A program made the position numbers and the translations under genes. Positions 11,467-41,625 of a stretch of DNA of 48,568 nt are shown piece after piece; position 1 is the stretch's first letter; each line of letters begins with the position of its first letter. The notes beneath the pieces were generated by a model. It was not told the origin of the DNA and did no database searches. It worked only from the letters and a program-made list of their open reading frames with translations. Source of the stretch: an uncultured Methylomonas sp. (GTDB taxonomy: Bacteria; Pseudomonadota; Gammaproteobacteria; Methylococcales; Methylomonadaceae); contig CAZGYJ010000001.1 of the NCBI GenBank assembly GCA_964530345.1, forward strand, positions 1 to 48,568. The letters run 5' to 3'.

Positions 11467-12144
11467 CTAAACAATTACCCCATCTTCCATATGTAATACG
11501 GTATCCATCCTTTCAGCCAACTCAGGATCGTGAGTGACCACCAAAAAACTTACCCCCAATTCCCTGTTTAACTCTAACATCAACTGATAAACATGCTCGG
11601 CAGTTTTACTATCCAGATTACCAGTAGGCTCATCAGCAAGTACGCATTTTGGCTTATTAATCAGGGCTCTGGCTACGGCTGCTCGCTGCCTTTCACCACC
11701 TGAAAGCTCACCCGGTTTATGTTCAATTCGATGCCCGAGACCGACTCTTTCTAAAAGAGTCTTGGCTTGCAGACTGGCATTTTTTACTGAAACACCTCCA
11801 ATCAGCAAGGGCATTGCCACATTTTCCAAAACGGTAAATTCACCTAATAGATGGTGAAATTGATAAATAAACCCTAATGACCGGTTCCTTAATTTGCTCA
11901 ACTTGCTCGAGCTGACTTGTTGTAAATTAATACCGTCCAGAATCACTTTTCCGGAAGTAGGTTTGTCCAAACCACCCAACAAATGCAGTAAAGTGCTCTT
12001 TCCTGAACCAGAGGCTCCCATAATTGCAACACGTTCGCCGATTTTAATATCCAGATTAACACCCTTTAATACTTCGACATCCAATTCACCTTGTTGAAAA
12101 CGTTTTTTCAATTGATGACACTGAATAATACTACAGCTATTCAT
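11467..12144 (-). CDS. lolD: Lipoprotein-releasing ABC transporter ATP-binding protein
   Basis: 225 aa. Walker [10 protein letters not shown], signature LSGGERQR, Walker [12 protein letters not shown]. 8-nt overlap with the upstream permease gene. Confidence 0.9.
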
Positions 12145-13384
12145 AACGAAGTACTTCCGCGGGGTTTACTTTTGAGGCTTGCCAGGCAGGATAAATGGTC
12201 GCTAATAGCGACAAAACAAATGCTATGCCTGCAACCGTATATACATCAGACCAAATTAATTTTGATGGTAGCTCGCTAATTGAATAAACATCTGGCGCCA
12301 TAAACTTTACCTCAAAAAACTGCTCAATGGCTGGAACTATCGTTTCAACATTTAAAGCCAGTAACACACCAAAGATCACACCCATTATCGTGCCGAATAA
12401 TCCTATAATAGTTCCCAGTACCATAAAAATCCCCATCACTGATGACGCGGTTAATCCTTGGGTTTTTAAGATGGCGATATCACCATGTTTATCCGTTACC
12501 ACCATCACCAGGGTAGAAACAATATTAAAAGCGGCAACCGCTACAATTAGCAGCAGAATAATAAACATGACTTTTTTCTCAGTTTGTATCGCTTTGTAGA
12601 AATTACTGTGTGCTTTGGTCCAATCACTAACCTGATATTTGCTGTAATATCGGTTAGCAAGTTCCTGTGTGATCCTGGGCGCATTAAATAAGTCATCCAG
12701 CTTCAACCTGAGGCCAGAAACATGATCGCCCAACTGAAAAAGTTTAGCTGCATCTTTGATGTTAATTAATGCCATGTTACGGTCATATTCATACATGCCA
12801 ATTTGAAACACGCCGACAACAGTAAACCGACGTAACCGAGGTAAAATACCAGCAGGTGTGGAATTTATTTGTGGGCTAATGACAGTAATTTTGTCGCCGG
12901 GAATCACGCCCAAATAATTTGCCAACTCTCCGCCTAATATTATTCTGTATTTTCCCGGCTCCAATAACTCTAATTTCCCAGCCTTCATTTTGCTCCCTAC
13001 TTCAGAAACCTGGGATTCCATTGCTGGGTCAATTCCTCTTAACAATGTTCCGCTAACTCTGCGATCAGCATTAATCATAACCTGCCCACGGACAAAAGGA
13101 GCGGCTCCCTCAACATGCGGAAATTCTAAAACTTCCTGCTGTAAATTCTTCCAATCTTTCAAGCGTCCATTAAAGCCGGTAATAGTCGTATGCGATGTCA
13201 TGCCCAGAATACGCTCTCTGAGTTCAGCTTCAAATCCGTTCATCACTGACAATACGGTAATTAACGCCGTCACACCAAGAGCAATTCCAAGAATAGATGT
13301 TAGCGTAATAAAAGAAATAAACTGGGTTCTACGTTTTGCACGCGTGTACCTCAGTCCAATAAATAAAACAAGGGGTTTAAACAT
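12137..13384 (-). CDS. lolC: Lipoprotein-releasing system transmembrane subunit (LolC/LolE family; the only copy adjacent to lolD)
   Basis: 415 aa. MacB/FtsX topology (TM1, large periplasmic domain, three C-terminal TMs). Typical LolC/E N-terminus [12 protein letters not shown]. Confidence 0.9.
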
Positions 13385-13403
13385 GAAAAAGTAACCGGAA
13401 AAG

Positions 13404-13823
13404 CTAAGAAGATGATTTACAGGACGAACAAAGTCCGTAAAGGCAAAGACTGTGATCGGTTAATTCATAACCATGTTCTTTGGCTATTTCCTTTTGCCTT
13501 TTTTCTATCCCAGCATCCGTAAATTCATCAACTCGTCCACATTTTACGCAAACGATATGGTCGTGGTGGTCACCACGATTGAGTTCAAAAACTGAATTAC
13601 CTCCCTCAAAATGATGACGCGTTACCAAGCCCGCTGCTTCAAATTGAGTTAACACACGGTAAACTGTAGCCAGACCAATTTCTTCCTTTTCACTTAACAG
13701 AATTTTATAAACTTGCTCGGCAGTTAAGTGCCTGACTTCTTCCTGTTTCTCTAAAATTTCCAGAATTTTAATCCTTGGTAAAGTTACCTTCAGTCCAGCA
13801 TTTCTTAAATCTTGTGTTTCCAA
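13404..13823 (-). CDS. fur: Ferric uptake regulator
   Basis: 139 aa. GLKVTLPRIKILEIL, ATVYRVLTQFEAAGLV, HHDHIVCVKCGRVDEF, C-terminal CSSC. TTG start preceded by GAGGAA. Confidence 0.92.
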   Translation of the reverse strand: METQDLRNAGLKVTLPRIKILEILEKQEEVRHLTAEQVYKILLSEKEEIGLATVYRVLTQFEAAGLVTRHHFEGGNSVFELNRGDHHDHIVCVKCGRVDEFTDAGIEKRQKEIAKEHGYELTDHSLCLYGLCSSCKSSS

Positions 13824-16718: not shown

Positions 16719-17966
16719 TTAGATAAATACAGGGATTAATGGTGCATCAACAGTTACCATTTGACGGTTACCGCTTTCATCAAAGAAAAACAGCAATCCA
16801 GCAAAACGACTATCTGGGTCATATACCAAGTCAGCTAAACGATATACTTCCCAAGCTGCGTCAGAACAAGTCACTTCAATAGTTCTTGTTTCACCTGGAG
16901 CAATTGGGCTGTTATCGCTTTGAGTCATACCGTTTTCTGCTAACAGATCATCTGGATAACCAGAATCATCTTCATAGACATCAGCGTCTAAGAAACGAAC
17001 AGATGCTGTATTGAACTCACCCAAACGTACTGGTGAATCACCATTGTTTGTGATTGTCAATGTCATCTGCATCGCACGACCTGGAACACGATAAGATGCG
17101 TCTTCAACTTTAACAGCGACAGTTGGCTCAGGCATTTCAATCCATTTGATACCACGAATCAAACCTGCTTGCAACGGAGTTGTTACAGGATATTTCTCGT
17201 TAGTTGCACTCATTGACATTGCAACGATTGCAATTGTGCCAACCATAAAGCCTATACCTACTTTTTTATCAGTTGGTGTAATCAAAGAATCGGCTTTACC
17301 TGACTCAACAGCAAGGTGACGTACGATGAATTGTGGTTTTTTGACCCAATAACCCAACCATGCCAAGCCAAACAAATACCAGAAACCATGCCAGAAATAG
17401 ATTGTATCTACCAAAGCATAAGTTTCTAAGTCAATTGTTTCGCCAGTCAACGTTGTTATAGGGTTAACAAAAGATCCCATAGACCCGTGAATGGTTACCC
17501 ATTTACCAGGACCGATGATTGGACCACCACCTTGTACATTCATCATAGCGTGAACATGCCAGTCTCCTGGACGACGTGCTTTTAGTAAAACCTTAAATTC
17601 ATAAGTTTTACCCAGCTCCAATGAGATTGAACGTGGCACCAATTGACCACCAACCCAAGAACCTGCACGAATAAATACAGGGCCTGGAATACCGATGTTC
17701 AAAAATGATACTTCTGGCTTATCAACAGTTTCTGGCCATCCAGCAAATACGTGGAACTTACCATCAAGAGTCATAGTCTCATTAACGTTCAGCTCATCTT
17801 TAGACCAATGCAGATCGTACCAGTGAATAGTACGCATTCGCATGAAAGCTGCCTGAGATTTTTCACCATGAGCAGAAGCTGTTGGCGTATAAAACATTGC
17901 CGCTGACAGTGATAATAGCAATGCTACAAAGGATAACTTTGCAACCTTGTCTTTTATTATTTTCAT
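16719..17966 (-). CDS. pmoB: Particulate methane monooxygenase subunit B
   Basis: 415 aa. Signal peptide ending ASA, then an N-terminal HGEKS (His-brace His). Two cupredoxin-like halves separated by two TM helices. GGAGG RBS. Confidence 0.97.
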   Translation of the reverse strand: MKIIKDKVAKLSFVALLLSLSAAMFYTPTASAHGEKSQAAFMRMRTIHWYDLHWSKDELNVNETMTLDGKFHVFAGWPETVDKPEVSFLNIGIPGPVFIRAGSWVGGQLVPRSISLELGKTYEFKVLLKARRPGDWHVHAMMNVQGGGPIIGPGKWVTIHGSMGSFVNPITTLTGETIDLETYALVDTIYFWHGFWYLFGLAWLGYWVKKPQFIVRHLAVESGKADSLITPTDKKVGIGFMVGTIAIVAMSMSATNEKYPVTTPLQAGLIRGIKWIEMPEPTVAVKVEDASYRVPGRAMQMTLTITNNGDSPVRLGEFNTASVRFLDADVYEDDSGYPDDLLAENGMTQSDNSPIAPGETRTIEVTCSDAAWEVYRLADLVYDPDSRFAGLLFFFDESGNRQMVTVDAPLIPVFI

Positions 17967-18062: not shown

Positions 18063-18806
18063 TTATATTGATTGAACAAATTTGGTGCTTGCGAACCATT
18101 GTCCAAAGAAATGCCATAAGAAGTAAATCAAGATACTTACGAAAGCAGAGAAGAACGCTGATACTGGAGCAACGTCTTTACCAAAGGTTCTTAATGTACC
18201 TTTTTCTACCATTCTGATGTACTCAGGAGTACCAGTTCTAACATAGTGGTAACCTTGTAAATCAGCCAAAGTAAACATCATACCGTTATATTCTACTGGT
18301 ACGTGTAAAGGCGCAATAACAGGCCAGTTACCAGGGTAGAACAATAAACCGTATGCCATACCACCAAGTACCGCAGTCAACACCATGCTACCAGATAGCA
18401 TCAAAATTACGTCCAAGACAACAGCGCCAGGAATTAAGTTTGATGGGAAACAAATGTTTACTGGGAAGTATGTCCAACCCCAGAAGTTCAAGTATCTGTT
18501 TACCCACTCGCCTAATAACAGACCGAGTACACAGACAACAGCACCATAAGGCAGACGATAACGCCACCAAAGACATGCTTGAACTGCAGCAGGGAAAGTA
18601 ATTGATACGATAGGTGCTACTGTTACCCAAAGACGTCTATCTTTCCAGTCAGACCAGAAATCCCAGTCACCGCCGGTTAACATGTAGTGAATGTGATAAC
18701 CACCTAAAACTACAAAAAATAGTGTAAAAAGAATCATCCAGTCAAACGTACGAGCAACCTTTACGGCTTCCGCACGTGATCTTACAGCTGATTGAGATGC
18801 GCTCAT
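18063..18806 (-). CDS. pmoA: Particulate methane monooxygenase subunit A
   Basis: 247 aa with typical type I PmoA sequence (GDWDFWSDWKDRRLWVTV, NYLNFWGWTYFPVN-like block, EYIRMVEKGTLRTFG). GGAGG RBS. Confidence 0.97.
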   Translation of the reverse strand: MSASQSAVRSRAEAVKVARTFDWMILFTLFFVVLGGYHIHYMLTGGDWDFWSDWKDRRLWVTVAPIVSITFPAAVQACLWWRYRLPYGAVVCVLGLLLGEWVNRYLNFWGWTYFPVNICFPSNLIPGAVVLDVILMLSGSMVLTAVLGGMAYGLLFYPGNWPVIAPLHVPVEYNGMMFTLADLQGYHYVRTGTPEYIRMVEKGTLRTFGKDVAPVSAFFSAFVSILIYFLWHFFGQWFASTKFVQSI

Positions 18807-18922: not shown

Positions 18923-19675
18923 TTATGCTAAGTCTTTTTTCAGCAATTTTGCAATAGCTTGTACTTCGATATTTACAACACCTAATACACCCAAAGCAGC
19001 CCATCCGAAGAATACGAAGCCATAGTGTAGAGGCGCAACAAATAACTCTTCCATGAACCAGAAAGTGTGTCCCCACTCATTCAAACCAACATTTGGAAGA
19101 ATCATGAAAGGACCAATTACTGATACCAAATACTGAAGAGGCAAGCCATTTTGGTATGTAGGCAATCTTGTTTTTGCATACAAGAAAGAAGCAACACCAG
19201 TAATGATGTAAATTGGATAGCTCAAATAGAACTCGATGATATGACTTGGAGTGAAATCAGTATCACGAACAATAGTTTGATGCCATGTTCCATCTTGCTC
19301 AGTGAAGTAGCTGGCACCGTAGTAAATTGCGATACCATACATTACCAACCATACCCAATGAGTAAAATGTCTTCTCAACTCTTCTCTTGGAGTAATTGAC
19401 ATAACCTTACGGTCACGTGTTTTCCAGATATATCCCCAAAGTATTGAAGCTGTCATCACTTCAAGTACGATTTCGATATAGAGAAAGTTCATCCAATACA
19501 CTTCGAATTCTGGTGCGAATGAATCCAGGCCAGCAGACCAGCCATAGACACCTTCATACCAACGAACCCAGCCGTAGAACAGAATATATAACGCTGCTCC
19601 GGCAAACATATTTTTCTTATTTAATAGCGGTGCTTCCGCAGCATCAGCTTTAACTGACTCAGTTGTAGCAGCCAT
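18923..19675 (-). CDS. pmoC: Particulate methane monooxygenase subunit C
   Basis: 250 aa with typical PmoC sequence (WYEGVYGWSAGLDSFAPEFEVYWMN, LNEWGHTFWFMEELFVAPLHYGFV). GGAGG RBS. Confidence 0.97.
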   Translation of the reverse strand: MAATTESVKADAAEAPLLNKKNMFAGAALYILFYGWVRWYEGVYGWSAGLDSFAPEFEVYWMNFLYIEIVLEVMTASILWGYIWKTRDRKVMSITPREELRRHFTHWVWLVMYGIAIYYGASYFTEQDGTWHQTIVRDTDFTPSHIIEFYLSYPIYIITGVASFLYAKTRLPTYQNGLPLQYLVSVIGPFMILPNVGLNEWGHTFWFMEELFVAPLHYGFVFFGWAALGVLGVVNIEVQAIAKLLKKDLA

Positions 19676-19957: not shown

Positions 19958-20395
19958 ATGAAGAAATACCCCATACTCTTATTGATTATATTTTTAGGCG
20001 CATTGCTTTTGTTTCAAAGCAAGGTTGTTGTCCCTTTAGTTAAAGAAATCGCTGCTTCTGATTTCTTTTTGACCGATACTGAAACCAAGGCAAATCCGCA
20101 ATCAATCGACACCCAAATGACTGAATATGCTTTCATTCATTGTAATGAGTTTATCCAAAACGAACTCGATTCAGAATACACAACCACCTTTTCATCCGCA
20201 CCAATTAACGCGTGGGATATTGGAGGCTATCAATATGTTATTAATGCTGAAATTGAGATCTCCAGCGATACCAGTGCGCCTATTTTAAAAAAATACGTCT
20301 GCCGTATTAAATATGATAATGGTAGTGATATGGAAGGCATCATGAACAGTGACAACTGGTCTGTTTATGGTCTTTCCGGCCTGGATGAATATTAG
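19958..20395 (+). CDS. Hypothetical exported/membrane-anchored protein, first gene of the metal ABC cluster
   Basis: 145 aa. N-terminal hydrophobic anchor MKKYPILLLIIFLGALLLF. No motif recognised. Confidence 0.55.
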   Translation: MKKYPILLLIIFLGALLLFQSKVVVPLVKEIAASDFFLTDTETKANPQSIDTQMTEYAFIHCNEFIQNELDSEYTTTFSSAPINAWDIGGYQYVINAEIEISSDTSAPILKKYVCRIKYDNGSDMEGIMNSDNWSVYGLSGLDEY

Positions 20396-20439: not shown

Positions 20440-21114
20440 ATGGTTAAAATTGAATCTTTAGTATTTTCATACGGCAATAACAGCTTTCGGCTCACGGTAC
20501 CGTCACTTTCAATTCAACCCCAAGAAAAACTTGCTATTATTGGCCCTAGCGGTTCAGGAAAAACTTCATTACTTAAGCTGATTTCCGGCATTTTGTTACC
20601 ACAACAAGGCCAAATTTCAATTAACAATATTTCTGTCAATTCGCTGCCTGATGCCAGGCGCCGTGATTTTCGCATCACTAATATTGGGTTTATTTTTCAA
20701 GACTTTGAATTACTTGATTATCTTGATACCTTTGATAATATTTTGCACCCATATCGAATCAGCAATGCTCTGAAATTGACAAGTGAAACTCGCAACAGGG
20801 TAAATGCCTTAGCTCATGAACTGGGCATCAAAAATAAACTCAAACAAATGAGCGGCACTTTGTCACAAGGTGAACAACAAAGAACTGCGATTTGTAGGGC
20901 ATTACTCCCCAAACCGAAAATTATTTTGGCTGACGAAGCAACCGGAAACCTCGACCCTACCAACAAAACAAAAATTCTTGAGGCCCTTTTTCGTAGTACT
21001 GAGAAAAATAATGCCACTTTAATTGCAGTTACACACGATCATGAACTACTAAGTCATTTCGATCGCGTCATCGACTTCAAAGATTATTGCACTCCAGAGA
21101 CAGAAAATGATTGA
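20440..21114 (+). CDS. ABC transporter ATP-binding protein (MacB/LolD/FtsE-like)
   Basis: 224 aa. Walker A GPSGSGKTS, signature LSQGEQQR, Walker B ILADEATGNLD. Confidence 0.9.
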   Translation: MVKIESLVFSYGNNSFRLTVPSLSIQPQEKLAIIGPSGSGKTSLLKLISGILLPQQGQISINNISVNSLPDARRRDFRITNIGFIFQDFELLDYLDTFDNILHPYRISNALKLTSETRNRVNALAHELGIKNKLKQMSGTLSQGEQQRTAICRALLPKPKIILADEATGNLDPTNKTKILEALFRSTEKNNATLIAVTHDHELLSHFDRVIDFKDYCTPETEND

Positions 21115-22288
21115 TAGTCTGTACCTTGCTTGGCGTTACATCAGTTTTAATCGGATCAAAACCGCAACGCTTATCGCCTGCATCAGCCTGATTACTTTTC
21201 TGCCGTTCGCCCTTAAAGCATTACTCACAGCTAGCGAACAGCAACTAATGTCCAGAGCAGACACGACACCACTACTTGTCGGCGCCAAAGGCAATGCTTT
21301 GGATTTAGTCATGAATTCCTTGTATTTCTCAAAAGAAATTCCTGGCTTTATTAACATGAATGAGGTTAATAAAATCGCCACTTCCAACCTTGCGAACCCT
21401 ATACCTTTATATATACGCTTTCATGCCAAAGAATACCCGATAGTTGGGACAACTATCGATTATTTCGAATTTCGAAAACTACAGCTAAGCTCAGGAAGAT
21501 ATTTTGCATTATTAGGGGAATGCGTCATTGGCGCTGATGTCGCCAATCTTTTGCGGCTAAAAGAAGGAGACAACCTACTCTCATCACCAGAAAATTTATT
21601 TGATCTGGCAGGCACCTACCCATTGAAGATGAGCATCACAGGCGTTTTAAAAAAAACCAATTCCGCTGATGATAAAGCAATTTTTGTCGACTTAAAAACT
21701 GCATGGGTAATTCAGGGCCTTGGCCATGGCCACCAGGACATAAAAACTCTTAAAGACCCAAGCAGTATTTTAAAACGCTCAAAAAACACAGTCACTACAT
21801 CAGAAAAAATCAAACAATTCACTGAAATCAATAAAGACAACCTTGCATCATTTCATTTCCACGGTGACCCTTCCAAGTATCCGTTGACAGCCATAATTGC
21901 CGCCCCGCTCGACACCAAATCAGCAACTTTATTACGCGGCCGGTTCTTATCTGAACAAGAAAATATTCAAATCGTAAGACCAAAAGAAGTTATTGAAGAT
22001 TTACTCGCCAATATTTTCAAAATTAAAAATTTTTTTGATGCGGTTGTTTTAATCGTTGCAATAGCCATGATTCTGGCTGTTTTCCTTGTTTTCAGTTTGT
22101 CATTACGGCTACGCCAAAAAGAGATAAACACTATTTTTCACTTGGGTTGCAGCCGCGGAACCATCGCACAACTCATCGCTGCAGAAATTTTTATTATTAC
22201 TGTATTCAGTGGCTTGATTTGCTGGCTAGCGTTATTCATACTAGGTCATTTCCAGGAAGAAATTGTTTATAAACTTTTTATTTCTTAA
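21107..22288 (+). CDS. ABC transporter permease, FtsX/MacB-type
   Basis: 393 aa. TM1, a ~250-aa periplasmic domain, then three C-terminal TMs. 8-nt overlap with the ATPase gene. Confidence 0.85.
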   Translation: MIDSLYLAWRYISFNRIKTATLIACISLITFLPFALKALLTASEQQLMSRADTTPLLVGAKGNALDLVMNSLYFSKEIPGFINMNEVNKIATSNLANPIPLYIRFHAKEYPIVGTTIDYFEFRKLQLSSGRYFALLGECVIGADVANLLRLKEGDNLLSSPENLFDLAGTYPLKMSITGVLKKTNSADDKAIFVDLKTAWVIQGLGHGHQDIKTLKDPSSILKRSKNTVTTSEKIKQFTEINKDNLASFHFHGDPSKYPLTAIIAAPLDTKSATLLRGRFLSEQENIQIVRPKEVIEDLLANIFKIKNFFDAVVLIVAIAMILAVFLVFSLSLRLRQKEINTIFHLGCSRGTIAQLIAAEIFIITVFSGLICWLALFILGHFQEEIVYKLFIS

Positions 22289-22308
22289 ATTTAACAAGGG
22301 TTTTCATA

Positions 22309-23223
22309 ATGAACCAACCATTAACAAATTTTTTTCGACTTATTTTTTTATTTGTTGGCGTTTTTTTTATGCACAATGGCTTAGTAAAAGCAGCCGAACA
22401 AACTCCTTTAAATGTTTATGTCGTAAATTATCCATTAAAATATTTTGCCCAAGCGATTGCCGGCCAACATGTGACTGTTACTCTACCCATGCCCGCCGAT
22501 ATTGACCCAGCGTTTTGGCTACCGGAACCGGAAGACATTATAAAAATTCAAAAAGCCGACTTAATCTTACTTAATGGAGCGAATTACGCCAAATGGCTTC
22601 CAAAAGTTTCTCTCCCCATCTTCAAACTGGTTGACACTTCCTCAGCATTCAAAGATGACTATATCGTCATCAAATCTGCAATTACGCATCAACACGGCAC
22701 TAGCGGAAAACACTCCCATGCCGGCACTGCCTTTACAACCTGGCTGGACTTTTCTCAAGCCGCAAAACAAGCCGAGTCTGTTTATAAAGCATTGCTGAAA
22801 AAGCGCCCCAAGCTGAAATCAGAGTTTGAAAAAAACTTTAATTCATTGCAAGGAGCCTTACTTGACCTTGACGCTGATATGACTCAAATTGGCACGCATC
22901 TGAAGCAAAGACCTCTTTTGGCCTCACACCCTGTATTTAAATACTTAAAAAGACGATACAAACTAAATTTAAAAAGCGTACACTGGGAACCTAATGAAAC
23001 ACCCAGTGAAACTCAATGGGCTAATTTGCAGGCAATTTTAGAAAAACATCCCGCCAAATTAATGCTTTGGGAAGCACAGCCAGCACCAGATACAATTTCG
23101 AGACTAGAAGAACTTGGAATCAAAAGTATTGTTTTCAGCCCCAGCGCCAACCAGCCAAAAACAGGTGATTTTATGAGCATAATGCGCGAAAATGTCGAGC
23201 GACTGAATAATAACGCTAAATAA
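22309..23223 (+). CDS. Periplasmic metal-binding protein, ZnuA/TroA (cluster A-I) family
   Basis: 304 aa. Signal peptide. Typical ADLILLNGANYAKWL block. His-rich loop ITHQHGTSGKHSHAGT. C-terminal lobe with LMLWEAQP. Confidence 0.8.
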   Translation: MNQPLTNFFRLIFLFVGVFFMHNGLVKAAEQTPLNVYVVNYPLKYFAQAIAGQHVTVTLPMPADIDPAFWLPEPEDIIKIQKADLILLNGANYAKWLPKVSLPIFKLVDTSSAFKDDYIVIKSAITHQHGTSGKHSHAGTAFTTWLDFSQAAKQAESVYKALLKKRPKLKSEFEKNFNSLQGALLDLDADMTQIGTHLKQRPLLASHPVFKYLKRRYKLNLKSVHWEPNETPSETQWANLQAILEKHPAKLMLWEAQPAPDTISRLEELGIKSIVFSPSANQPKTGDFMSIMRENVERLNNNAK

Positions 23224-23310
23224 TTGCAAACCCGCTTATAAAAATTTGCCAAATAACAACTTTCCCTGGGTTTGCATCAACACCAATAAAATTAAAGAGG
23301 AGGAAAACCC

Positions 23311-23838
23311 ATGAGATTTTATAAGCTATCCTGGCCAATAGTCTTGTTTTGCTTTTTTTCTACTGTTTCGCATGCTGAGCACCTACCTGTCGGCATGGAA
23401 ATTTTAGCCAACTGCCACAATTTTTTTTCCAAGGGCAAGATTAAAAGACTCCATAAGGAGAAATATGTCATTAACTTTGATAAGGATGCCAGACCCGTAC
23501 TATGCACGCCCTTTGCCTGGGACAGCATGTTTCTGGTTCCTTATAAACCAGTATCTGAATACACCAATCCAAATGGCAAAATCTTCAAAAAAGGCGACCT
23601 TTTAAAAATAGAATTCAAAGCCACACCCAGAGGAGCCTTTTTTAGTCGCAAATTTACAATTACTGCTGCAATAAAAGAAATTAACGAAAACGGCACAGCT
23701 CAGCTTGAAATAAAGGAAGGCGACATTAAAGCGCAACAACTTTTTACCCGATGGGTAGGGACAAATTATGTACTACTTGATTTATCTGACGATCTGACAG
23801 CTGATAAACTTACTATCTTGAATATTGAGAAGCTATAA
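23311..23838 (+). CDS. Hypothetical secreted protein
   Basis: 175 aa. Signal peptide (VSHA|EH). Strong RBS GAGGAGG. No motif recognised. Confidence 0.6.
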   Translation: MRFYKLSWPIVLFCFFSTVSHAEHLPVGMEILANCHNFFSKGKIKRLHKEKYVINFDKDARPVLCTPFAWDSMFLVPYKPVSEYTNPNGKIFKKGDLLKIEFKATPRGAFFSRKFTITAAIKEINENGTAQLEIKEGDIKAQQLFTRWVGTNYVLLDLSDDLTADKLTILNIEKL

Positions 23839-23848
23839 AATTTGAAAA

Positions 23849-23890
23849 AAATCAAAATGAGCTTCTTCGGGGAGAAGCTCATTTTGATTT
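23849..23890. terminator. Bidirectional rho-independent terminator between convergent operons
   Basis: 18-bp perfect stem aaatcaaaatgagcttct / agaagctcattttgattt with a 6-nt loop. On the minus strand it is followed by a T7 run. Confidence 0.75.
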
Positions 23891-23959
23891 CCATGAACTC
23901 TGAAAATACAGCCTGCAATTCAGCAGCAATCCACACCACGAAAAAACTTATACTCTCTA

Positions 23960-25654
23960 TCAGGCTCCCTCCCCGTCAACCCGCTGCTGACCTATAGGCT
24001 CTATTGCGACAATTTTCCAATACCCGCCCATCGGTAAAACTTTAATTCTGGCATGATATTTATTTTCACGTCGATGCTGATGTCCCCAATGAATAACTTC
24101 TCCTATAACCAACCATTCACAATCAATAAGATTACCATCTCCAAACAATGGCGAAATATCATTCAAACTTTGTATTTCGATACGTTTAACATCTGATATC
24201 GCACCATCTGCAACAAGAAACGACTGACGATTTTGCAAATAAAGCATTTCCTGCAAATCACCACTAACACTATAAGCCAATTGGTCATAGGCAGCATCTT
24301 CCTGTGGAGCCTCAAAAGCTTGATAGACATTCCATAATAACTGCTTTAATACTGTTTTTGCCCGCTGTTCGTCCAGTCTAGACCCTGCGCCAAAAACCGA
24401 CCAACCATAATTTAACGACAAATAACCCATCATTAAACCAACGAATAAAATCACTGGAAGCATGACTTTATGAAAACGTTGCCCAGAAGACCTATAACCA
24501 AACACACCAAGAATCAACAGCCCAACAACTATAACCAACCAAAGATATTTCAAACTCTGGCCCGCTTGTTCAACGGGTACCGGCATGGACTGAGGCTTGG
24601 CCTCAGGCATTGGCAAATCAATATCAGACAGCATATTATCCCACTCAAAAACAGGATATTTTGGCGTCACATAACTATCAAACAGCCCGGCAGGGTCGTA
24701 AGCCCTGATGGCAACACGCTGAATCTGGTCATTAAAAAGTTGCCAATGCCATTGTAGTTTTTCGGGTATTGCCTTAATTTGATGAATAATACTCACACCA
24801 ATTAGTGTAGCAGCTTGATTCTGAGCTTTTTGTGGTTTATAAGCCTGAATATCTGCTGCACCCATCTGTATATAATCAACCCGCCCCAAGACCGGGGTTA
24901 GTTTCTTAGAATCAGCACTAAGATGATTTTGTGTCAATAAAAACTGGCCAATTTTTTTTTTGACAACAGGGAATTCATCAGGATAAATCATTACCTTATC
25001 TCGTAAACCCAAATCCATCCAACCAGCCATTTCCTTAACCCTGACGACAATCTCACTTTTGACTTGTCTCGGCTCAATATAAAGAAAAGCCATGACCGGA
25101 TCACTGTGCCCTCGCTTCAGCTTAGGATTTTTAAAATGACTATACCAGGGATCCTGCCAATCCAAGATCAACGTCTCTTTGCTGGTTAATACGCCATGAT
25201 CAATTACTGGCAACCCCTGGTGTGCAACAGTTATTAGATATTTCTCTCCGGCTTTTTCAATAGCTTTAAAGTCAGGGATAATCTCAAGCTGTTCTGGTTG
25301 TTTTGAAAAACGAAAAAAAACGATTCGTGAACCTTCAGCCACATCAGATTTCAATTCAGAAGTCAGCTCACTATCAGCCTTAATGTGGATAGCTTTTTTC
25401 ACAAAGGCATCTACTAACCCAGTTTTATCAGAACCAGAAGTTTCAGCCTGTAACTTGGCAACCGCTTTTTCAGCCAGATCAACAGTGACCTCAACCCCGT
25501 CATCAACCACATTAATCGCAATTCTGGTCGATACATCTTCAATCGTTATTCCTGAATTCCAGTCTGCCGAAACAATATTGGTAATAAAACTGGCAACAAC
25601 AAAAATCCAGAGCCATAACTGGCGGTTCGCGCCAGACCCAATGGTTATTGACAT
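23960..25654 (-). CDS. Hypothetical envelope protein (two periplasmic domains separated by a TM hairpin)
   Basis: 564 aa. N-terminal signal/anchor, a ~350-aa domain, two TM helices (LWLVIVVGLLILGVFGY / VMLPVILFVGLMMGYLSL), then a ~150-aa C-terminal domain. Last gene of the CopC operon. Confidence 0.6.
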   Translation of the reverse strand: MSITIGSGANRQLWLWIFVVASFITNIVSADWNSGITIEDVSTRIAINVVDDGVEVTVDLAEKAVAKLQAETSGSDKTGLVDAFVKKAIHIKADSELTSELKSDVAEGSRIVFFRFSKQPEQLEIIPDFKAIEKAGEKYLITVAHQGLPVIDHGVLTSKETLILDWQDPWYSHFKNPKLKRGHSDPVMAFLYIEPRQVKSEIVVRVKEMAGWMDLGLRDKVMIYPDEFPVVKKKIGQFLLTQNHLSADSKKLTPVLGRVDYIQMGAADIQAYKPQKAQNQAATLIGVSIIHQIKAIPEKLQWHWQLFNDQIQRVAIRAYDPAGLFDSYVTPKYPVFEWDNMLSDIDLPMPEAKPQSMPVPVEQAGQSLKYLWLVIVVGLLILGVFGYRSSGQRFHKVMLPVILFVGLMMGYLSLNYGWSVFGAGSRLDEQRAKTVLKQLLWNVYQAFEAPQEDAAYDQLAYSVSGDLQEMLYLQNRQSFLVADGAISDVKRIEIQSLNDISPLFGDGNLIDCEWLVIGEVIHWGHQHRRENKYHARIKVLPMGGYWKIVAIEPIGQQRVDGEGA

Positions 25655-25672
25655 ATTTATATTTTCAGGAAG

Positions 25673-26299
25673 CTAGTTTTTGCCGAGTTGCTTGCGGTTA
25701 TGCATAAACAGAAAAAACCGGTAAAGGCCATAACCTACAACAAGAGCAAGAAGAGCAATTAAATAAGGAAGCAGCGAAGTCCATTTAAAAGGCGAACTGA
25801 CACCTACCCATAATGGTATTCTGATTTTATCGGCAAACATATCATCGCCAACGGATACAATTAATGTATATTGCCCTGGTTTTGGAAAGTTGGCCTGAAT
25901 TTGCGCAACGCCGGTGGTATATTGCTTAACAGGCTCATGGGCAATAGTCGCGCCATCTTTCATTTCACCTTCAACTTCAGGATTTGGTAGAGCCTCTACA
26001 ACCTGCATTTCAACTGGCATTTGCCTCAAATCCCGATCAATAAAATCAATCGCCAGATAAGTTAAACCATCTTTAGGTAATTCCTGGCAATAAGGCTCAA
26101 ACTTATTCCGTTTTGACCCACTGTCTTTTTTGGGTTCCTGATAGGTCGTCAAATGAACAATATAGAAATCAGTAGTAATCAAGCAAGTTAAGTTTTTTTT
26201 TGGATCATACTTGTCCTGAGCTTCTGCATGAACGTAATTTTGAGTACCCGCAAAAATAAAAAAAACCAGCAATAATTTTACAAAAAACAACTTTTTCAC
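25673..26299 (-). CDS. Hypothetical periplasmic protein with a C-terminal TM anchor
   Basis: 208 aa. Signal peptide (YVHA|EA), a ~150-aa domain that appears beta-rich, and a single C-terminal TM (LLPYLIALLALVVGYGLYRFFLF). 41 nt downstream of copC. Confidence 0.6.
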   Translation of the reverse strand: MKKLFFVKLLLVFFIFAGTQNYVHAEAQDKYDPKKNLTCLITTDFYIVHLTTYQEPKKDSGSKRNKFEPYCQELPKDGLTYLAIDFIDRDLRQMPVEMQVVEALPNPEVEGEMKDGATIAHEPVKQYTTGVAQIQANFPKPGQYTLIVSVGDDMFADKIRIPLWVGVSSPFKWTSLLPYLIALLALVVGYGLYRFFLFMHNRKQLGKN

Positions 26300-26340
26300 A
26301 GCGCTCCCTTCGGGCTATAACAATAATAATGAAAAAAACT

Positions 26341-26700
26341 TTATTCAGTCACTTCGAAAAACAATTTTCCGGTCACAATATGACCATCCTCTGATTGCAC
26401 TCGATAACGAATCCCATAACGTCCAGGTGTTAATTTTTTCAGTGTCGCACTCAAATGCGATTTATCAAACGCCTCCAGATCTCCATCCCTGTTATCCACA
26501 CGTTCCCCCTTGCTGTTTACCACGGCAAGCGCTGTATATTTCGGCCCGACGGGCGCATCAAACCAAAGGTCTACACGCGTTGGCGGAGTTTTTAGTGACT
26601 CCTCTTTTGACGGTGATGATTTTACCAGAATCGCATGAGCAAATATTGCATCAGCCCAAACCACCGCCAAAACAACTAATAAAATATTAATTTTTTTCAT
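26341..26700 (-). CDS. copC: Periplasmic copper-binding protein CopC (single Cu(II)-site type)
   Basis: 119 aa. Signal peptide cleavage is predicted to expose an N-terminal His (IFA|HAILVKSSP). Conserved D-x-H in SEDGHIVTG. No Met-rich Cu(I) loop. Confidence 0.85.
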   Translation of the reverse strand: MKKINILLVVLAVVWADAIFAHAILVKSSPSKEESLKTPPTRVDLWFDAPVGPKYTALAVVNSKGERVDNRDGDLEAFDKSHLSATLKKLTPGRYGIRYRVQSEDGHIVTGKLFFEVTE

Positions 26701-26720
26701 TACTTACAATTTCATTTAGA

Positions 26721-27980
26721 TCACAAAATTGACATCTTACCAATAGCATCGCCGTTATCAAGCCACTCGGTCCAGAAAATGCGAAAACCACTTAAGGTGC
26801 CAACAATTTTTGGATGTGAGGCATCCACCCCATCCTGTGTTAACAGTAGCTCTTTTGACCAGCTTCTTCCGCCATCGCCAGAAACTCTCATTAAGACCTG
26901 TTTTTTTTCCGAATTACCAGCAGTATAAACAATAGCAAGTTGATCATTGTCAATGGCAGCAATATCACCTGAAGCACTGGATTCATCGCCTATTCTAACA
27001 ACCGGATTCCACTTTCCCTGTTCGGCTGACTGACTATAAAATATCCCCCGGTTTGAAGCTTTACCGTTCCAGATTACAGCGTGAAGAATAGTTTTTCCTT
27101 CCATCTGGGTGGAAACAAGCCCACCCCCCTGATGAGGACAGCCAACAAATTGCCAATCGAATGGCCAAACAACATTCGGCTTTTGCCAGGATTTACCTCC
27201 ATCAAATGATGAAATCAAATTCATATCCCGGGGTTTATCCTCACGATACAGCACATGAACATTATTTTTTAAATCCACCTCGATCTCGCTCCAGCAACAG
27301 GTACAAACGCTGGTCGCTAAATTCTTATGATCTCGCCAAACAGCATTTTGCTGACTATCCAGAAAATTTGCATATCGCAATCCTTGAGTATTACCCGCTT
27401 CTTCACGATCATCCAACCATACAAAATGAAATTTGCCTTTCTGATCTGCAGTAACATCCATATAGCCCTGATCAACCTTGGCATATTTTTCACTGACCGG
27501 ACTATCAATCTTGACCCAGGTTTTACCCAAATCCCGAGACAAGGCAGCAACAATCTTTCCCGTCCACGGCTCTCCACCTTTGGTTTTCCAGACTGCCATT
27601 ACGTTATTGCCAAAAGCCGCAATCTGGAAATCATTACCGCGTCTGGCCTGTTTTACAGGTGCGATGTGTTGATTTACTATTACCGGCGCTGACCACGTTT
27701 TACCAGCATTCAAGGAATGAAGATACTTTACCAGCGGCTTTCCGGTTTTTTTGTCAAGGCCGGAATATAATGCATGAATGGTATTTTTTTCGGCATAAAC
27801 ATCTAGCGTTTGAACCGTCTTGAAACCGATTTCAGGAAAGGCTTCCGCAGCATTAGCCGGAGACAGTATCATGAGATAACAGGCAAAACATATAAAAACC
27901 AAACCAACAAAATCTGCTTGGACAAATCCATACTGGAAATTCCAAAAGTTGGGCAAAAATTTTAAAACTGCTTTTTTCAT
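26721..27980 (-). CDS. BNR/Asp-box repeat beta-propeller protein (sialidase-like fold), exported
   Basis: 419 aa. N-terminal anchor/signal. Four Asp-boxes (SLNAGKTW, SRDLGKTW, SFDGGKSW, SGDGGRSW). Confidence 0.75.
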   Translation of the reverse strand: MKKAVLKFLPNFWNFQYGFVQADFVGLVFICFACYLMILSPANAAEAFPEIGFKTVQTLDVYAEKNTIHALYSGLDKKTGKPLVKYLHSLNAGKTWSAPVIVNQHIAPVKQARRGNDFQIAAFGNNVMAVWKTKGGEPWTGKIVAALSRDLGKTWVKIDSPVSEKYAKVDQGYMDVTADQKGKFHFVWLDDREEAGNTQGLRYANFLDSQQNAVWRDHKNLATSVCTCCWSEIEVDLKNNVHVLYREDKPRDMNLISSFDGGKSWQKPNVVWPFDWQFVGCPHQGGGLVSTQMEGKTILHAVIWNGKASNRGIFYSQSAEQGKWNPVVRIGDESSASGDIAAIDNDQLAIVYTAGNSEKKQVLMRVSGDGGRSWSKELLLTQDGVDASHPKIVGTLSGFRIFWTEWLDNGDAIGKMSIL

Positions 27981-39042: not shown

Positions 39043-39789
39043 ATGAAAAAAATAAGTAAAACACCTTTAGCCGCCGCCATGGGCACTGCTGTCGTTTCCA
39101 CATTATCAGCTTCTGCAGTAAATGCTGAAGCCAATCCTTTTGGTCTCTCAGAATTATCTGAAGGTTACATGCAAACGGCAGAATACATCCCCTATAAAGG
39201 GGCTAAAAAAAGCAGCGCTAGCAGCAAAAAAGAAATGAGCTGCGGCGCTGGCATGGGAAAAAAGGAAGGTTCGTGCGGTGAAGGAAAGTGTGGAAACAAG
39301 GTCGATGCTAAAAAAATGGCAGAAGGAAAATGTGCAGCAGGGATGAAAAAATCAACGGCAAAAGCCAAAGAAGGTAAATGCGGAGAAGGCAAATGTTCCA
39401 GCATGATGGATGGCAATAAAATGAAAAAAGGCATGGAAATGTCTTGTGGCGCCATGATGAAAGGCAAGGAAGGAAAGTGTGGCATGATGGGTGGCGGCAT
39501 GAAGATGAAAGAAGGCAAGTGCGGCGAAGGAAAATGCGGCGACATGATGAAAGACGGTAAAATGAAAAAAGGTATGGAAAAATCTTGTGGCGCAATGATG
39601 AAAGGTAAGGAAGGTGAATGCGGCGCCATGAAACAAACCACCACAAAAGCAAAAGAAGGTAAATGTGGCGAGGGAAAATGTGGTGATATGATGGATGGCA
39701 ATAAAATGAAGAAAGGCATGGAAAAATCCTGTGGTGCCATGATGAAAGGCAAGGAAGGAAAATGTGGTAACAAGGTGAAATCTAAATAA
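39043..39789 (+). CDS. hvfA: HvfA-family-like RiPP metallophore precursor: Sec-exported Gly/Lys/Cys/Met low-complexity protein with EGKCG repeats
   Basis: 248 aa. GGAGA RBS. Signal peptide ...SASAVNA|EA. Conserved-looking NPFGLSELSEGYM block. 16 Cys (residues 67, 78, 83, 97, 113, 118, 135, 146, 160, 165, 182, 193, 208, 213, 230, 241). Fourteen Cys are followed by Gly and 8 sit in exact EGKCG. Immediately upstream of the DUF692 and DUF2063 genes. Confidence 0.85.
   Translation: MKKISKTPLAAAMGTAVVSTLSASAVNAEANPFGLSELSEGYMQTAEYIPYKGAKKSSASSKKEMSCGAGMGKKEGSCGEGKCGNKVDAKKMAEGKCAAGMKKSTAKAKEGKCGEGKCSSMMDGNKMKKGMEMSCGAMMKGKEGKCGMMGGGMKMKEGKCGEGKCGDMMKDGKMKKGMEKSCGAMMKGKEGECGAMKQTTTKAKEGKCGEGKCGDMMDGNKMKKGMEKSCGAMMKGKEGKCGNKVKSK
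39367..39786 (+). repeat. Three tandem ~47-aa (about 140-nt) coding repeats inside the precursor gene
   Basis: Units start at residues K109, K156 and K204. Each reads KEGKCGEGKC(G/S)-(D/S)MM-x-DG-x-KMKKGME(K/M)SCGAMMKGKEG(K/E)CG. Confidence 0.85.
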
Positions 39790-39794
39790 CAAAA

Positions 39795-39973
39795 CTGCCA
39801 GGCACAGCATCACTACCATTAAGTTAAGAGTATTTGCAATTTTGTAGGTCAGGTTAGCGGTAGCGTAACCCGACAAAATCTAGAAAATGTTGGGTTACGC
39901 TACCGCTAACCTGACCTACACTTTGTCTTAACTTCGTGGCAGTGAGACACAGCATGCATTCGCTGTGGCCTGG
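39795..39973. repeat. REPIN/MITE-like palindromic element between the precursor and maturase genes
   Basis: The core is a perfect 29-bp inverted repeat: tgtaggtcaggttagcggtagcgtaaccc (39843-39871) against gggttacgctaccgctaacctgacctaca (39892-39920). It extends to 32 bp with one G-U pair and has GTAG...CTAC ends. Outer imperfect arms are 39811-39829 / 39926-39944 (16 of 19 positions). An 8-nt direct repeat cacagcat lies at 39803-39810 and 39948-39955. Confidence 0.85.
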
Positions 39974-40009
39974 TAACATCTACTTTTTATACTTTTTAAA
40001 GGCGCCAGT

Positions 40010-40861
40010 ATGAATATCAAAAAAAATCCGATTAATGGTTCAGGATTGGGTTTACGCCGAAGCTTTCTCGATGAAATAGTGATGCAACCGCCCGAAGCGG
40101 TCGATTTTTACGAAGTTGCGCCGGAAAACTGGATCAATATTGGCGGTAAAATGGGCAAACAGTTTCGCGCCATGACCGAACGCTTTCCATTTATTGCTCA
40201 CGGCCTTTCACTTTCCATAGGCAGCCCGGACCCACTTGATGAAGAATTTCTAAGATCTGTTAAATCCTTTTTGGCTGAGCATCAAATACTGCTTTACAGC
40301 GAGCATCTCAGCTATTGCAGCTATGATGGTCATTTATATGACTTGATGCCCATTCCCTTTACCAGCGAGGCGATTACTTATGTTGCAGAACGCATCCGCC
40401 GGGTACAGGACATTCTGGAACAAAAAATAGCGATAGAAAATGTTTCCTATTACGCAGCGCCCGGCCAGGAAATGAATGAAATTGACTTTTTCAATGCGGT
40501 CGTCACTGAATCAGACTGCGACATTTTAATTGATATCAATAATATCTATGTTAACAGCATCAACCATGGATACGATGCCGAAGCCTTTTTAAAAGCCATT
40601 CCCGCACAACAAATCGCATACGCCCACATTGCCGGGCATTATGTTGAAGCTGAAGATTTTCTGGTAGACACCCACGGCGCAGAAGTCATTGATCCCGTTT
40701 GGAAATTATTAGGTAAAGCCTATGAGCTTTATGGAATCTTCCCAACATTACTGGAAAGAGATTTTAATATACCAGAAATGACGGAATTGGTACGGGAAGT
40801 CAAAACCATCAAGGCTGTACAGCAGTCCTGGAAAAATCAGCATGAAATAAAATCCGCTTGA
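40010..40861 (+). CDS. hvfB: DUF692 / multinuclear non-heme iron oxidase (MNIO, MbnB/HvfB/BufB family) RiPP maturase
   Basis: 283 aa. Family blocks GLGLRR, EVAPENW, HGLSLSIGS, SEHLSYCS, ENVSYY, DINNIYVNSINHG, HIAGH, VDTHG, LERDFNIP. Confidence 0.9.
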   Translation: MNIKKNPINGSGLGLRRSFLDEIVMQPPEAVDFYEVAPENWINIGGKMGKQFRAMTERFPFIAHGLSLSIGSPDPLDEEFLRSVKSFLAEHQILLYSEHLSYCSYDGHLYDLMPIPFTSEAITYVAERIRRVQDILEQKIAIENVSYYAAPGQEMNEIDFFNAVVTESDCDILIDINNIYVNSINHGYDAEAFLKAIPAQQIAYAHIAGHYVEAEDFLVDTHGAEVIDPVWKLLGKAYELYGIFPTLLERDFNIPEMTELVREVKTIKAVQQSWKNQHEIKSA

Positions 40862-40878
40862 TTTATTGATTATTTTTA

Positions 40879-41625
40879 ATGAACTTCCAACACAAACAAC
40901 ACGAATTCACATCTTTTATCCGCAACCCTGACACGCATCCTGCGCCACCCGATGTAAAACCGGATCGTATGGCGATGTACAGATCATTACTCTTCAACAA
41001 TATTGAAAGCTTTTTAGCCAGTAATTTTCCAGTCCTGAAAAAAATTATTCCCGAACAACACTGGATAGATATGGCGCAGGACTTTTTCAGCCAACACAGC
41101 AACAAATCACCTTATTTTGCTGAAATTGCCGAAGAATTTTTACAGTATCTCCAGGATGAAAGAAAACCTAACCCAAATGATCCACCTTTCATGCTTGAAC
41201 TTGCACATTATGAGTGGGTGGAAATGGCTGCAACAATTGCTACGGAACAACTGCCCGACAACTCCCCTGATGTAGAAAAACTGAATGAGAGCAGCCGTTT
41301 AAAACTGTCGCCTTTAGCATGGTCTTTAGCTTACCAATTTCCCGTGCATAAACTTTCCCCACAATACCAACCAGATTCAATACCAGAAATCCCGACCTTT
41401 TTGACTGTATTCAGGGATCGGGATGATGAAGTCAGATTTTTGGAAATACCGCCAATCACCTATCAAATGCTGGTGTTTGTCGAAGAAAACAAGGGCTTGA
41501 CTGTATCTGACTGTATCGCAAAATTGAACGCTACATTTACTGGAATCAATACTGACATAATTAAATCAGGAACAATCAAGACCATAGAGGAATTAGCCGA
41601 TAAAGATATTATATTTTTTGACTAG
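40879..41625 (+). CDS. hvfC: DUF2063-domain RiPP maturation partner (HvfC/BufC-like)
   Basis: 248 aa. N-terminal DUF2063-like pattern (QHEFTSFIRNPD...MAMYRSLLFNNIESFLASNFPVLKKII...W). Starts 17 nt after the MNIO stop. Confidence 0.8.
   Translation: MNFQHKQHEFTSFIRNPDTHPAPPDVKPDRMAMYRSLLFNNIESFLASNFPVLKKIIPEQHWIDMAQDFFSQHSNKSPYFAEIAEEFLQYLQDERKPNPNDPPFMLELAHYEWVEMAATIATEQLPDNSPDVEKLNESSRLKLSPLAWSLAYQFPVHKLSPQYQPDSIPEIPTFLTVFRDRDDEVRFLEIPPITYQMLVFVEENKGLTVSDCIAKLNATFTGINTDIIKSGTIKTIEELADKDIIFFD

Follow-up and report, generated by a model that had tools for sequence, protein, structure and literature searches.

In gammaproteobacterial methanotrophs that make no methanobactin, copper supply decides which methane monooxygenase is used; the question is how copper reaches and crosses the inner membrane. 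A locus from an uncultured Methylomonas sp. (NCBI GenBank assembly GCA_964530345.1, contig CAZGYJ010000001.1, positions 1 to 48,568 of the forward strand; this whole stretch of 48,568 nucleotides is called the window below) bears on it. Near pmoCAB, the genes for particulate methane monooxygenase (pMMO), four minus-strand genes encode a BNR/Asp-box propeller, a CopC, a 208-aa protein and a 564-aa protein. The original prediction, made from the sequence alone, took them for an uncharacterised copper-handling or delivery module associated with pMMO, with three proteins of unknown function in the place of CopD, the usual partner of CopC. What, then, are these four genes, and what do they work with? 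They are one half of a larger, already-noticed methanotroph copper-starvation cluster that includes an ATP-binding cassette (ABC) transporter, and the window carries a new member, in rearranged form, of the cluster known from Methylococcus capsulatus.

A probable copper-starvation cluster in two convergent units

The four open reading frames (ORFs) are present as predicted at 23960-27980, separated by gaps of 20, 41 and 18 nt, and they end at a strong terminator. This hairpin (23847-23892) has a 20-bp stem and is followed by a U run, with a folding free energy of -26.9 kcal/mol for the minus-strand RNA (z = -6.45; none of 200 shuffled sequences was equally stable). It folds on the plus-strand RNA too (-24.8 kcal/mol) and therefore can terminate transcription from both sides; a simple terminator scan of the window does not list it. 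From the other side, three transporter genes and a gene for an exported 175-aa protein converge on the four-gene operon and share its terminator (Table 1). The operon ends 4.3 kb from pmoC, within the 5 kb originally given, and a Pfam scan of approximately 47 ORFs of the window finds no CopD domain, so that the absence of copD stands.

Searching the window proteins against the ORFs of 79 fetched loci (designated by L numbers) links the two units. Wherever a Methylococcales-type locus extends far enough upstream (14 loci), it keeps the order BNR-CopC-PmoD-564aa (the 208-aa protein being a PmoD homologue, see below). Between the ABC unit and the four-gene unit lie 25 nt to 9 kb in 11 of 16 Methylococcales-type loci, several of the others being too short to judge, and in L087 and L092 all seven genes form one colinear operon. 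The non-methanotroph loci come from Nitrospinota, Nitrospirae, Desulfobacterales, Thiotrichales, Chromatiales, Burkholderiales and others. There, a same-strand homologue of the ABC ATPase gene of the window directly follows the 564-aa homologue in 43 of 52 assessable cases, with a MacB-type permease in 37 of those 43 and usually a ZnuA-like protein as well; BNR, CopC and PmoD are found in none of 65 such loci. The 564-aa protein thus has a MacB-type ABC transporter and a ZnuA-like protein as obligate neighbours, and of the candidates to stand in functionally for CopD this transporter is the more plausible. The proposal that three unknowns take the place of copD is not supported: copD is absent, but one of the three is a PmoD, and the 564-aa protein is partnered with the ABC unit (20440-23223), which the original prediction had not included. 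Conservation of gene order with copC, which had been put forward as a check, upholds the view of the operon as a conserved copper-related envelope module. Its association with pMMO is not supported. Only two of the 16 relatives (L076 and L013) carry pmoCAB inside the fetched locus, and pmoCAB is not within 10 kb of the cluster in a 3.27-Mb contig of a metagenome-assembled genome; proximity to pmoCAB is therefore lineage-specific.

The same set of products is known from "copper-responding cluster 3" (CRC3) of M. capsulatus Bath, MCA2169-MCA2175, described by Larsen & Karlsen 2016 (PMC4831470). Their supplementary table gives the fold increase of each gene in copper-free cells producing soluble methane monooxygenase (sMMO): 57x for the hypothetical protein MCA2169, 17x for the CopC-like MCA2170, 67x for the newly annotated AmoD-like MCA2170b (about 230 aa), 23x for the hypothetical MCA2171, 8.6x for the ABC ATPase MCA2172, 2.1x for the permease MCA2173 (with MacB_PCD and FtsX InterPro entries), 6.9x for the ZnuA-type binding protein MCA2174, and 4.1x for the hypothetical MCA2175 (PMC4831470). 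The products come in the order, and carry the domain labels, seen in the colinear operons of L087 and L092 and, once the split is allowed for, in the window, which differs in having its cluster divided into two convergent units with a common terminator beside pmoCAB. From gene order, lengths and annotations we infer that MCA2169 is the orthologue of the BNR protein and MCA2171 that of the 564-aa protein. Gathered at this locus are the genes with the strongest induction by copper starvation reported for M. capsulatus, those of sMMO excepted.

Larsen & Karlsen already suggested the CRC3 ABC transporter as a possible copper acquirer (PMC4831470), and the induction of a copC-adjacent pmoD without copper is repeated in a later genome paper. 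CRC3 is known from transcript levels only, and the literature searched yielded no functional study of a CRC3-type cluster. Copper responsiveness, which the original prediction had named as a check, is supported by the strong induction that the apparent M. capsulatus equivalents show in the absence of copper (PMC4831470). The operon is neither uncharacterised nor novel as a whole, the copC-pmoD pairing and its copper repression having been published (PMC6189053; PMC4831470; PMC6688271). None of the outcomes that the original prediction had named as telling against it (loss of conservation, lack of a copper response, proteins from unrelated families, a copD gene nearby) was encountered.

Table 1. 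Genes and terminator of the two convergent units, with the pmoCAB genes, in window coordinates
Feature	Position	Strand	Remarks
pmoB	16719..17966	-	
pmoA	18063..18806	-	
pmoC	18923..19675	-	
ABC ATPase	20440..21114	+	Pfam ABC_tran 5.8e-32, 111.6 bits
MacB/FtsX-type permease with periplasmic domain	21107..22288	+	Pfam MacB_PCD, FtsX
Atypical ZnuA-like cluster A-I binding protein	22309..23223	+	Pfam ZnuA (PF01297) 4.8e-44, 151 bits
Exported 175-aa protein, fold unassigned	23311..23838	+	follows binding-protein gene in Methylococcales loci
Bidirectional hairpin terminator	23847..23892	both	common to two convergent units; folding free energy, z about -6.4
564-aa inner-membrane protein gene	23960..25654	-	AlphaFold2 model, Foldseek, invariant columns
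PmoD/AmoD-family gene	25673..26299	-	208 aa, GTG start; phmmer match to 6CPD
CopC gene	26341..26700	-	119 aa, single Cu(II)-site (C0-1) His-brace type; Pfam CopC
BNR/Asp-box propeller gene	26721..27980	-	419 aa, exported, first gene of operon; Pfam BNR_2 and BNR

CopC and PmoD

The CopC of the window matches the Pfam model CopC (PF04234) with E=6.4e-21 and 75.6 bits against a gathering cut-off of 23.3, while its score to the canonical CopC equivalog NF033814 (58.2 bits) falls below the cut-off of 95. Closest to it in the Protein Data Bank (PDB) are two other CopCs, one a domain of the Bacillus copper importer YcnJ (9C14, E=1.3e-11) and one from Methylosinus trichosporium OB3b (5ICU, E=6e-11). 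H22, at the predicted cleavage site, pairs with the mature residue His1 of both structures, and D105-G-H107 aligns in both with the D-x-H pair of Cu(II) ligands. Residues 22-119 contain no Met at all, so the Met-rich Cu(I) site is missing. These alignments bear out the single-Cu(II), His-brace type that had been read from the sequence. CopCs of this subtype are labelled C0-1. The protein thus shares its Cu(II)-only His-brace CopC with the CopCD and YcnJ/YcnI systems, being nearest to the YcnJ domain and the C0-1 CopC of OB3b, but differs in that no CopD domain accompanies it.

The 208-aa protein has no matching model in Pfam or NCBIfam. A phmmer search of PDB sequences nevertheless relates it, over residues 38-150, to PmoD of Methylocystis sp. 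Rockwell (6CPD, E=2.2e-10), so that its description as a protein of unknown function no longer applies. In an alignment of 10 orthologues, two distant homologues and 6CPD itself, C39, H49 and C71 are invariant. Ile replaces the Met of the CuA-forming motif Cx7MxHxnC, leaving C39-x9-H49; the CuA-forming subclass of PmoD was considered for this protein and set aside on that motif. From its sequence, the protein belongs to the Cx9HxnC class of the cupredoxin-like PmoD/AmoD family, begins with a signal peptide and has, at approximately 177-199, a hydrophobic stretch predicted to be a single C-terminal transmembrane anchor. In that architecture it presumably recalls YcnI (DUF1775), a protein of a different fold family; Pfam gives the 208-aa protein no match to DUF1775. 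As expected of a PmoD, it comes from a genome with a copper membrane monooxygenase, the pmoCAB of the window.

Much of this is familiar ground. Fisher et al. 2018 (PMC6189053) report that the Cx9HxnC class makes up 22% of PmoDs, with genes "often found near copC", that a representative member binds copper and does not form the CuA site, and that copper represses a pmoD/copC pair in both M. trichosporium OB3b and M. capsulatus (PMC6189053). Their copC-pmoD pairs, e.g. MettrDRAFT_0039-0040, show the same lone copC with a copper-repressed PmoD homologue. The CopC-PmoD core of the cluster is therefore already published knowledge. The BNR propeller and the 564-aa protein are not discussed in the main text of that paper, whose neighbourhood traits list the FtsX, TonB-receptor and two-component families, not BNR.

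The BNR propeller and its triad with CopC and PmoD

The first protein of the operon matches Pfam BNR_2 (E=2.6e-11, 43.8 bits against a cut-off of 31.4) and BNR. Foldseek relates its AlphaFold2 model, with a predicted local distance difference test score (pLDDT) of 89.1, generically to GH33 sialidases and other six-bladed propellers (template modelling score, or TM-score, 0.46-0.59; 10-17% identity; E about 1e-10). A true sialidase role was considered and is unlikely: the sequence contains no FRIP motif ([FY]R[IV]P), and the residues invariant in the family are Cys and His. An alignment of 22 sequences has C226, C228, C229, W230 and C281-P282-H283 invariant; in one of 70 sequences the Cys and Pro residues stay invariant, and W230 and H283 are kept in at least 90%. 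Conservation of CxCC...CPH without a FRIP motif suggests a candidate metal or redox site and speaks against a glycosidase. Lipoprotein-like signal sequences are found in many of the orthologues.

The BNR, CopC and PmoD-like genes form a triad that is intact in every additional fetched locus having CopC, whatever else stands beside it. In L087 and L092 it accompanies the 564-aa/ABC unit; in L084, L085 and L089 it comes directly after a HupE/UreJ-2 permease of Ang-1-like type (predicted mature N-terminus His); in L090 its neighbours are a NikR-like regulator and a TonB-dependent receptor; and in L091 it is alone. Distant BNR homologues stand alone, without CopC, in L086 and L088; the contig of L082/L083 stops just after the BNR gene, which puts CopC outside the available sequence.

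Several details of these loci may be recorded. In L084/L085 (7853-11104) and L089 (4856-8114) the permease, BNR, CopC and PmoD-like genes are joined by overlapping stop and start codons, the PmoD-like protein is of lipoprotein type without a transmembrane anchor, and the whole group lies immediately downstream of the cobalamin-synthesis genes cobU-cobT-cobC-cobS-cbiB-cobD. Rfam detects no cobalamin riboswitch in L084 or L089. At 8548-11127 of L090 the triad is followed by the NikR-like regulator (RHH_1 and NikR_C) and the TonB-dependent receptor, in a methylotroph-like context with Fae and tetrahydromethanopterin-pathway genes upstream. For TonB-dependent receptors near related loci, NCBIfam gives either nothing or a sub-threshold match to siderophore receptors, and no copper-receptor family.

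The 564-aa protein and the ABC unit

Sequence and profile searches find no significant match to the 564-aa protein in Pfam, NCBIfam or PDB sequences. Its relatives are numerous, with 80 retrieved by word index, 398 among GTDB species representatives, and 2612 clusters at 50% identity (E<=1e-3), 909 of these at E<=1e-30. H145, D152, W166-x-D-P-W170 and H522-W-G-H525-x-H527-x-R529 are invariant in the family, and a predicted mature N-terminus of Asp-Trp is nearly so. In the AlphaFold2 model (pLDDT 79.9) a signal peptide is followed by periplasmic alpha/beta domains at approximately 40-165 and 185-340, a transmembrane hairpin whose helices span 371-389 and 392-416, and, at 429-558, a periplasmic C-terminal domain of helix plus sheet. 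The original prediction of periplasmic domains joined by a transmembrane hairpin is borne out by the model.

Foldseek against the PDB places first the Cu-bound Ang-1 domain of a HupE/UreJ-2 permease (9GCE, E=8e-6). It also finds Zn-binding ZrgA/PA4063 (E=5e-5 to 3e-4, probability 1.0, target TM-score 0.56-0.64), a match at the level of the fold, and NTF2-like folds, which we assign to the C-terminal domain of the model from its secondary structure. Comparing the family profile with the Ang-1-like domain of the L084 HupE/UreJ-2 permease by hhalign gives no similarity (probability 0.1). With no sequence or profile signal, the likeness to ZrgA and Ang-1 therefore stays at the level of the fold.

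Among the proteins of the ABC unit, the permease passes the MacB_PCD cut-off (29.6 bits against 27), falls just short for FtsX (21.8 against 25.5), and matches nothing among PDB sequences at E<=0.01. The ZnuA-like protein is closest in the PDB to zinc-binding YcdH (E=9e-22) and AdcA, but its ligand columns read Ala/Thr/His/Glu in 38 of 38 members, two of the canonical His being replaced and the third His and the Glu kept. A short HxHGxxGxHxH loop is conserved in the family. A conventional cluster A-I assignment, with a site of three His plus Glu/Asp and a ZnuB-type permease, does not fit, the partner permease being of MacB type. A cluster A-I binding protein paired with a MacB-type permease is, to our knowledge, unusual.

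Nothing in Pfam, NCBIfam or the PDB sequences matches the 175-aa protein. Homologues occur in 10 Methylococcales loci, beside the ZnuA-like gene wherever the fragment includes that gene. Equivalence to ZrgE/PA4066 was considered for it, with no match among PDB sequences.

In 23 non-methanotroph loci a metallo-beta-lactamase (MBL)-fold hydrolase is encoded just 5' of the 564-aa gene (e.g. L044 8159-9466, L080 7223-8473); its scores to NCBIfam "GntH guanitoxin" (421-436 bits) lie above the cut-off of 333, and some of these loci add a FadL-like outer-membrane protein and a TetR regulator. Twelve of the 16 Methylococcales locus records have a heavy-metal two-component system 3' of the 564-aa gene (NCBIfam TIGR01387, 317 bits against 279; TIGR01386, 413 against 292.6). 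In most marine relatives, e.g. L001 9946-12082, this CopRS/CusRS-family system comes immediately after that gene; it is absent from the lineage of the window (the window, L003, L076 and L013).

Comparison with other metal systems

ZrgABCDE of Vibrio cholerae and PA4063-PA4066 of Pseudomonas aeruginosa are built on a similar plan. Their first gene encodes a periplasmic metal-binding protein, to which the 564-aa protein is alike in fold, and a split MacB-type ABC system follows, with a separate ATPase and a four-transmembrane-helix permease carrying a periplasmic domain; they are induced by metal starvation. ZrgA and PA4063 are Zn-binding partners of that transporter (PMC9820375). By its Pfam domains the unit in the window is likewise a split MacB-type ABC system as in ZrgABC/PA4063-4065, but a ZnuA-like protein takes the place of ZrgD/ZrgE/PA4066. 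The window system is linked to copper, whereas ZrgABCDE/PA4063-66 are linked to Zur and zinc, and the methanotroph clusters, unlike these two, add the BNR-CopC-PmoD triad.

The second comparison is with the Ang-1-HupE/UreJ-2 "anglerase" permeases (PMC12537917). Of the structures matched by the 564-aa protein, their domain 9GCE ranks first, and a permease of this type precedes the triad in L084, L085 and L089. Ang-1 of HupE/UreJ-2 was designated a copper protein, Cu2+ giving the largest thermal shift (PMC12537917). The 564-aa protein, however, has the transmembrane hairpin only and no HupE/UreJ channel domain, its predicted mature N-terminus is Asp-Trp and not the His of Ang-1, and there is no profile-level similarity.

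Proposed mechanism and its alternatives

On our best reading, the four-gene unit would be the periplasmic front half and the convergent ABC unit (20440-23838) the back half of one system. Together they probably, though far from certainly, constitute a copper-acquisition system induced by copper starvation. CopC would capture Cu(II) via its N-terminal His-brace, with the BNR propeller and the membrane-anchored Cx9H PmoD as possible further stations for copper binding, redox chemistry or hand-over. The metal would then pass to the 564-aa protein, which would display ZrgA/Ang-1-like metal-binding domains and an NTF2-like, His-rich domain on the outer side of the inner membrane and couple to the MacB-type ABC transporter and the atypical ZnuA-like protein. 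ATP hydrolysis, transmitted towards the periplasm, could drive metal transfer or uptake, and the ABC unit with the 564-aa protein would so fill the place that CopD has in CopCD systems. The gene content, homologies, conserved linkage and conserved motifs entering this scheme are observed directly; the copper repression of the M. capsulatus equivalents and the copper binding of CopC and Cx9H-class PmoDs come from the literature. What we infer from these is in which order the proteins hand over the metal, which way it is transported, and for which metal the BNR, 564-aa and ZnuA-like proteins are specific.

Direction is the main uncertainty of the mechanism, and a number of points weigh against acquisition. 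Import across the inner membrane is not known for any MacB-type ABC system, and such transporters work by mechanotransmission; CopRS-type sensors usually activate resistance genes rather than uptake genes. The nearest analogue is itself disputed, having been assigned to zinc import in V. cholerae and, as PA4064-PA4065 of P. aeruginosa, to pyochelin-cobalt export (PMC11481552). The ZnuA-like protein, lacking two canonical ligands, may bind metal unconventionally or not at all. The likeness of the 564-aa model to ZrgA/Ang-1 is one of fold only, at target TM-scores of 0.54-0.64, and the orthology of MCA2169 and MCA2171 is drawn from the order, lengths and annotations in a published table, not from sequence alignment. 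Many non-methanotrophs have the core ABC unit but neither CopC nor PmoD, and copper may therefore not be its ancestral metal. A copper-acquisition role in this particular organism is a prediction.

Should the ABC unit face the other way, with the 564-aa protein as adaptor, it might expel a substrate from the periplasm or inner membrane, for example a copper-chelating metallophore or an excess metal chelate, CopC and PmoD being mere periplasmic buffers. We hold this to be unlikely. The mechanotransmission architecture of MacB exporters, the export role given to PA4064-PA4065 (PMC11481552), the FadL-like outer-membrane channels and TetR regulators of some non-methanotroph loci, the CopRS-type sensors adjoining the operon in many relatives, and the HvfABC copper-binding peptide system elsewhere in the window would all suit it. 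Yet Pfam scans of the window ORFs reveal no MacA-like adaptor or TolC-like gene beside the unit, and a cluster A-I binding protein together with a CopC nearest to importer-linked CopCs points inward. Secreting a chelator under copper starvation would moreover itself count as acquisition, so this alternative differs mainly in mechanism. A dedicated delivery of copper to pMMO in the intracytoplasmic membranes, with proximity to pmoCAB reflecting function, is more doubtful still. It would explain why the operon lies so close to pmoC here and beside pmoCAB in L076 and L013, why the PmoD family is almost confined to genomes with copper membrane monooxygenases, and why an in-operon pmoD is required for pMMO-dependent growth (PMC6189053). 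It is at odds, however, with the lack of pmoCAB in the 14 other related loci, among them some with approximately 10 kb on both sides and the one in the 3.27-Mb contig; with the peak of the M. capsulatus equivalents in copper-free, sMMO-expressing cells, where pMMO is least used; with the missing Cx7MxH CuA motif that marks the PmoDs of pmo operons; and with the wide occurrence of the 564-aa/ABC core in organisms without pMMO.

The least probable alternative, to which we give little credence, is that the system serves another metal such as zinc, cobalt or nickel, the copper link of CopC and PmoD being incidental or secondary. The ZrgA and PA4063 analogues do bind zinc or cobalt and are Zur-regulated, the ZnuA-like protein is nearest to zinc-binding YcdH and AdcA, HupE/UreJ permeases are of nickel/cobalt type and follow cobalamin genes in L084 and L089, and L090 has its NikR-like regulator. 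But the whole M. capsulatus cluster responds to the omission of copper alone, CopC and PmoD are copper proteins, and Ang-1 of HupE/UreJ-2 counts as one by its thermal shift with Cu2+; further, the canonical zinc site of the ZnuA-like protein is destroyed in 38 of 38 members, and the two cobalamin-linked loci lack a cobalamin riboswitch.

Copper acquisition, the reading that we prefer, allows a bolder extension, offered tentatively and at less than even chances. BNR(CxCC...CPH)-CopC-PmoD may be a portable periplasmic cassette for copper capture that is mounted on interchangeable inner-membrane engines: either the 564-aa adaptor with a split MacB-type ABC transporter and a ZnuA-like protein whose site is relocated to its His loop, a previously unrecognised and widespread metal system, or an Ang-1-HupE/UreJ-2 permease. 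Together these might supply the missing high-affinity copper import route of methanobactin-free methanotrophs, with the first MacB-type ABC transporter to drive metal uptake through a binding protein. In the literature searched we found no description of the obligate link between the 564-aa family, MacB-type ABC transporters and the altered ZnuA-like protein across many phyla, of the triad as a portable cassette, or of the fold-level tie of the 564-aa protein to ZrgA and Ang-1. The comparison gives the cluster a testable structure, namely a three-protein cassette, a 564-aa family without a Pfam model, and a ZnuA-like protein with a replaced site. Copper import by the ABC unit, if true, would extend the supposed abilities of MacB-type transporters and would bear on the import-versus-export dispute over ZrgABC/PA4063-66.

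Upstream elements and other features of the window

An Rfam search of the window and of five related loci detects no riboswitch, and no operator or promoter motif attributable to copper regulation is common to the loci 5' of the BNR gene. Inspection by eye finds promoter-like elements that are lineage-specific only: sigma-54-like in Methylococcus-like relatives (TGGCAC-N5-TTGA in L082, TGGCAT-N5-TTGA in L087), and sigma-70-like (TTGACG...TATTTA) in marine relatives. Neither kind is clear in the window.

The 145-aa product of a plus-strand gene at 19958-20395 has a hydrophobic segment at its N-terminus and matches no family. The gene precedes the ABC unit by 44 nt, and in L013 and L076 it also stands divergent beside pmoC, even with the ABC unit elsewhere; because it stays with pmoC, it seems tied to pmoCAB and not to the ABC transporter. 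A second MacB-type system of the window is a LolCDE-like ABC pair within 11467-13823 (minus strand), made up of a MacB_PCD/FtsX permease (12137-13384) and an ATPase (11467-12144) beside a Fur-family regulator (13404-13823); its sequence context is unrelated to the copper cluster.

The second copper-related system of the window is an HvfABC-like operon (39043-41625, plus strand), 11 kb from the four-gene operon, for a copper-binding oxazolone/thioamide ribosomally synthesized and post-translationally modified peptide. NCBIfam recognises the HvfB MNIO maturase (438 against a cut-off of 360) and HvfC (281 against 142). The precursor is unusually long at 248 aa, with a signal peptide and dense EGKCG / MSCGAMMKGKEGKCG repeats, and matches KCGExKCG_twice with 49 bits against a cut-off of 19.5.

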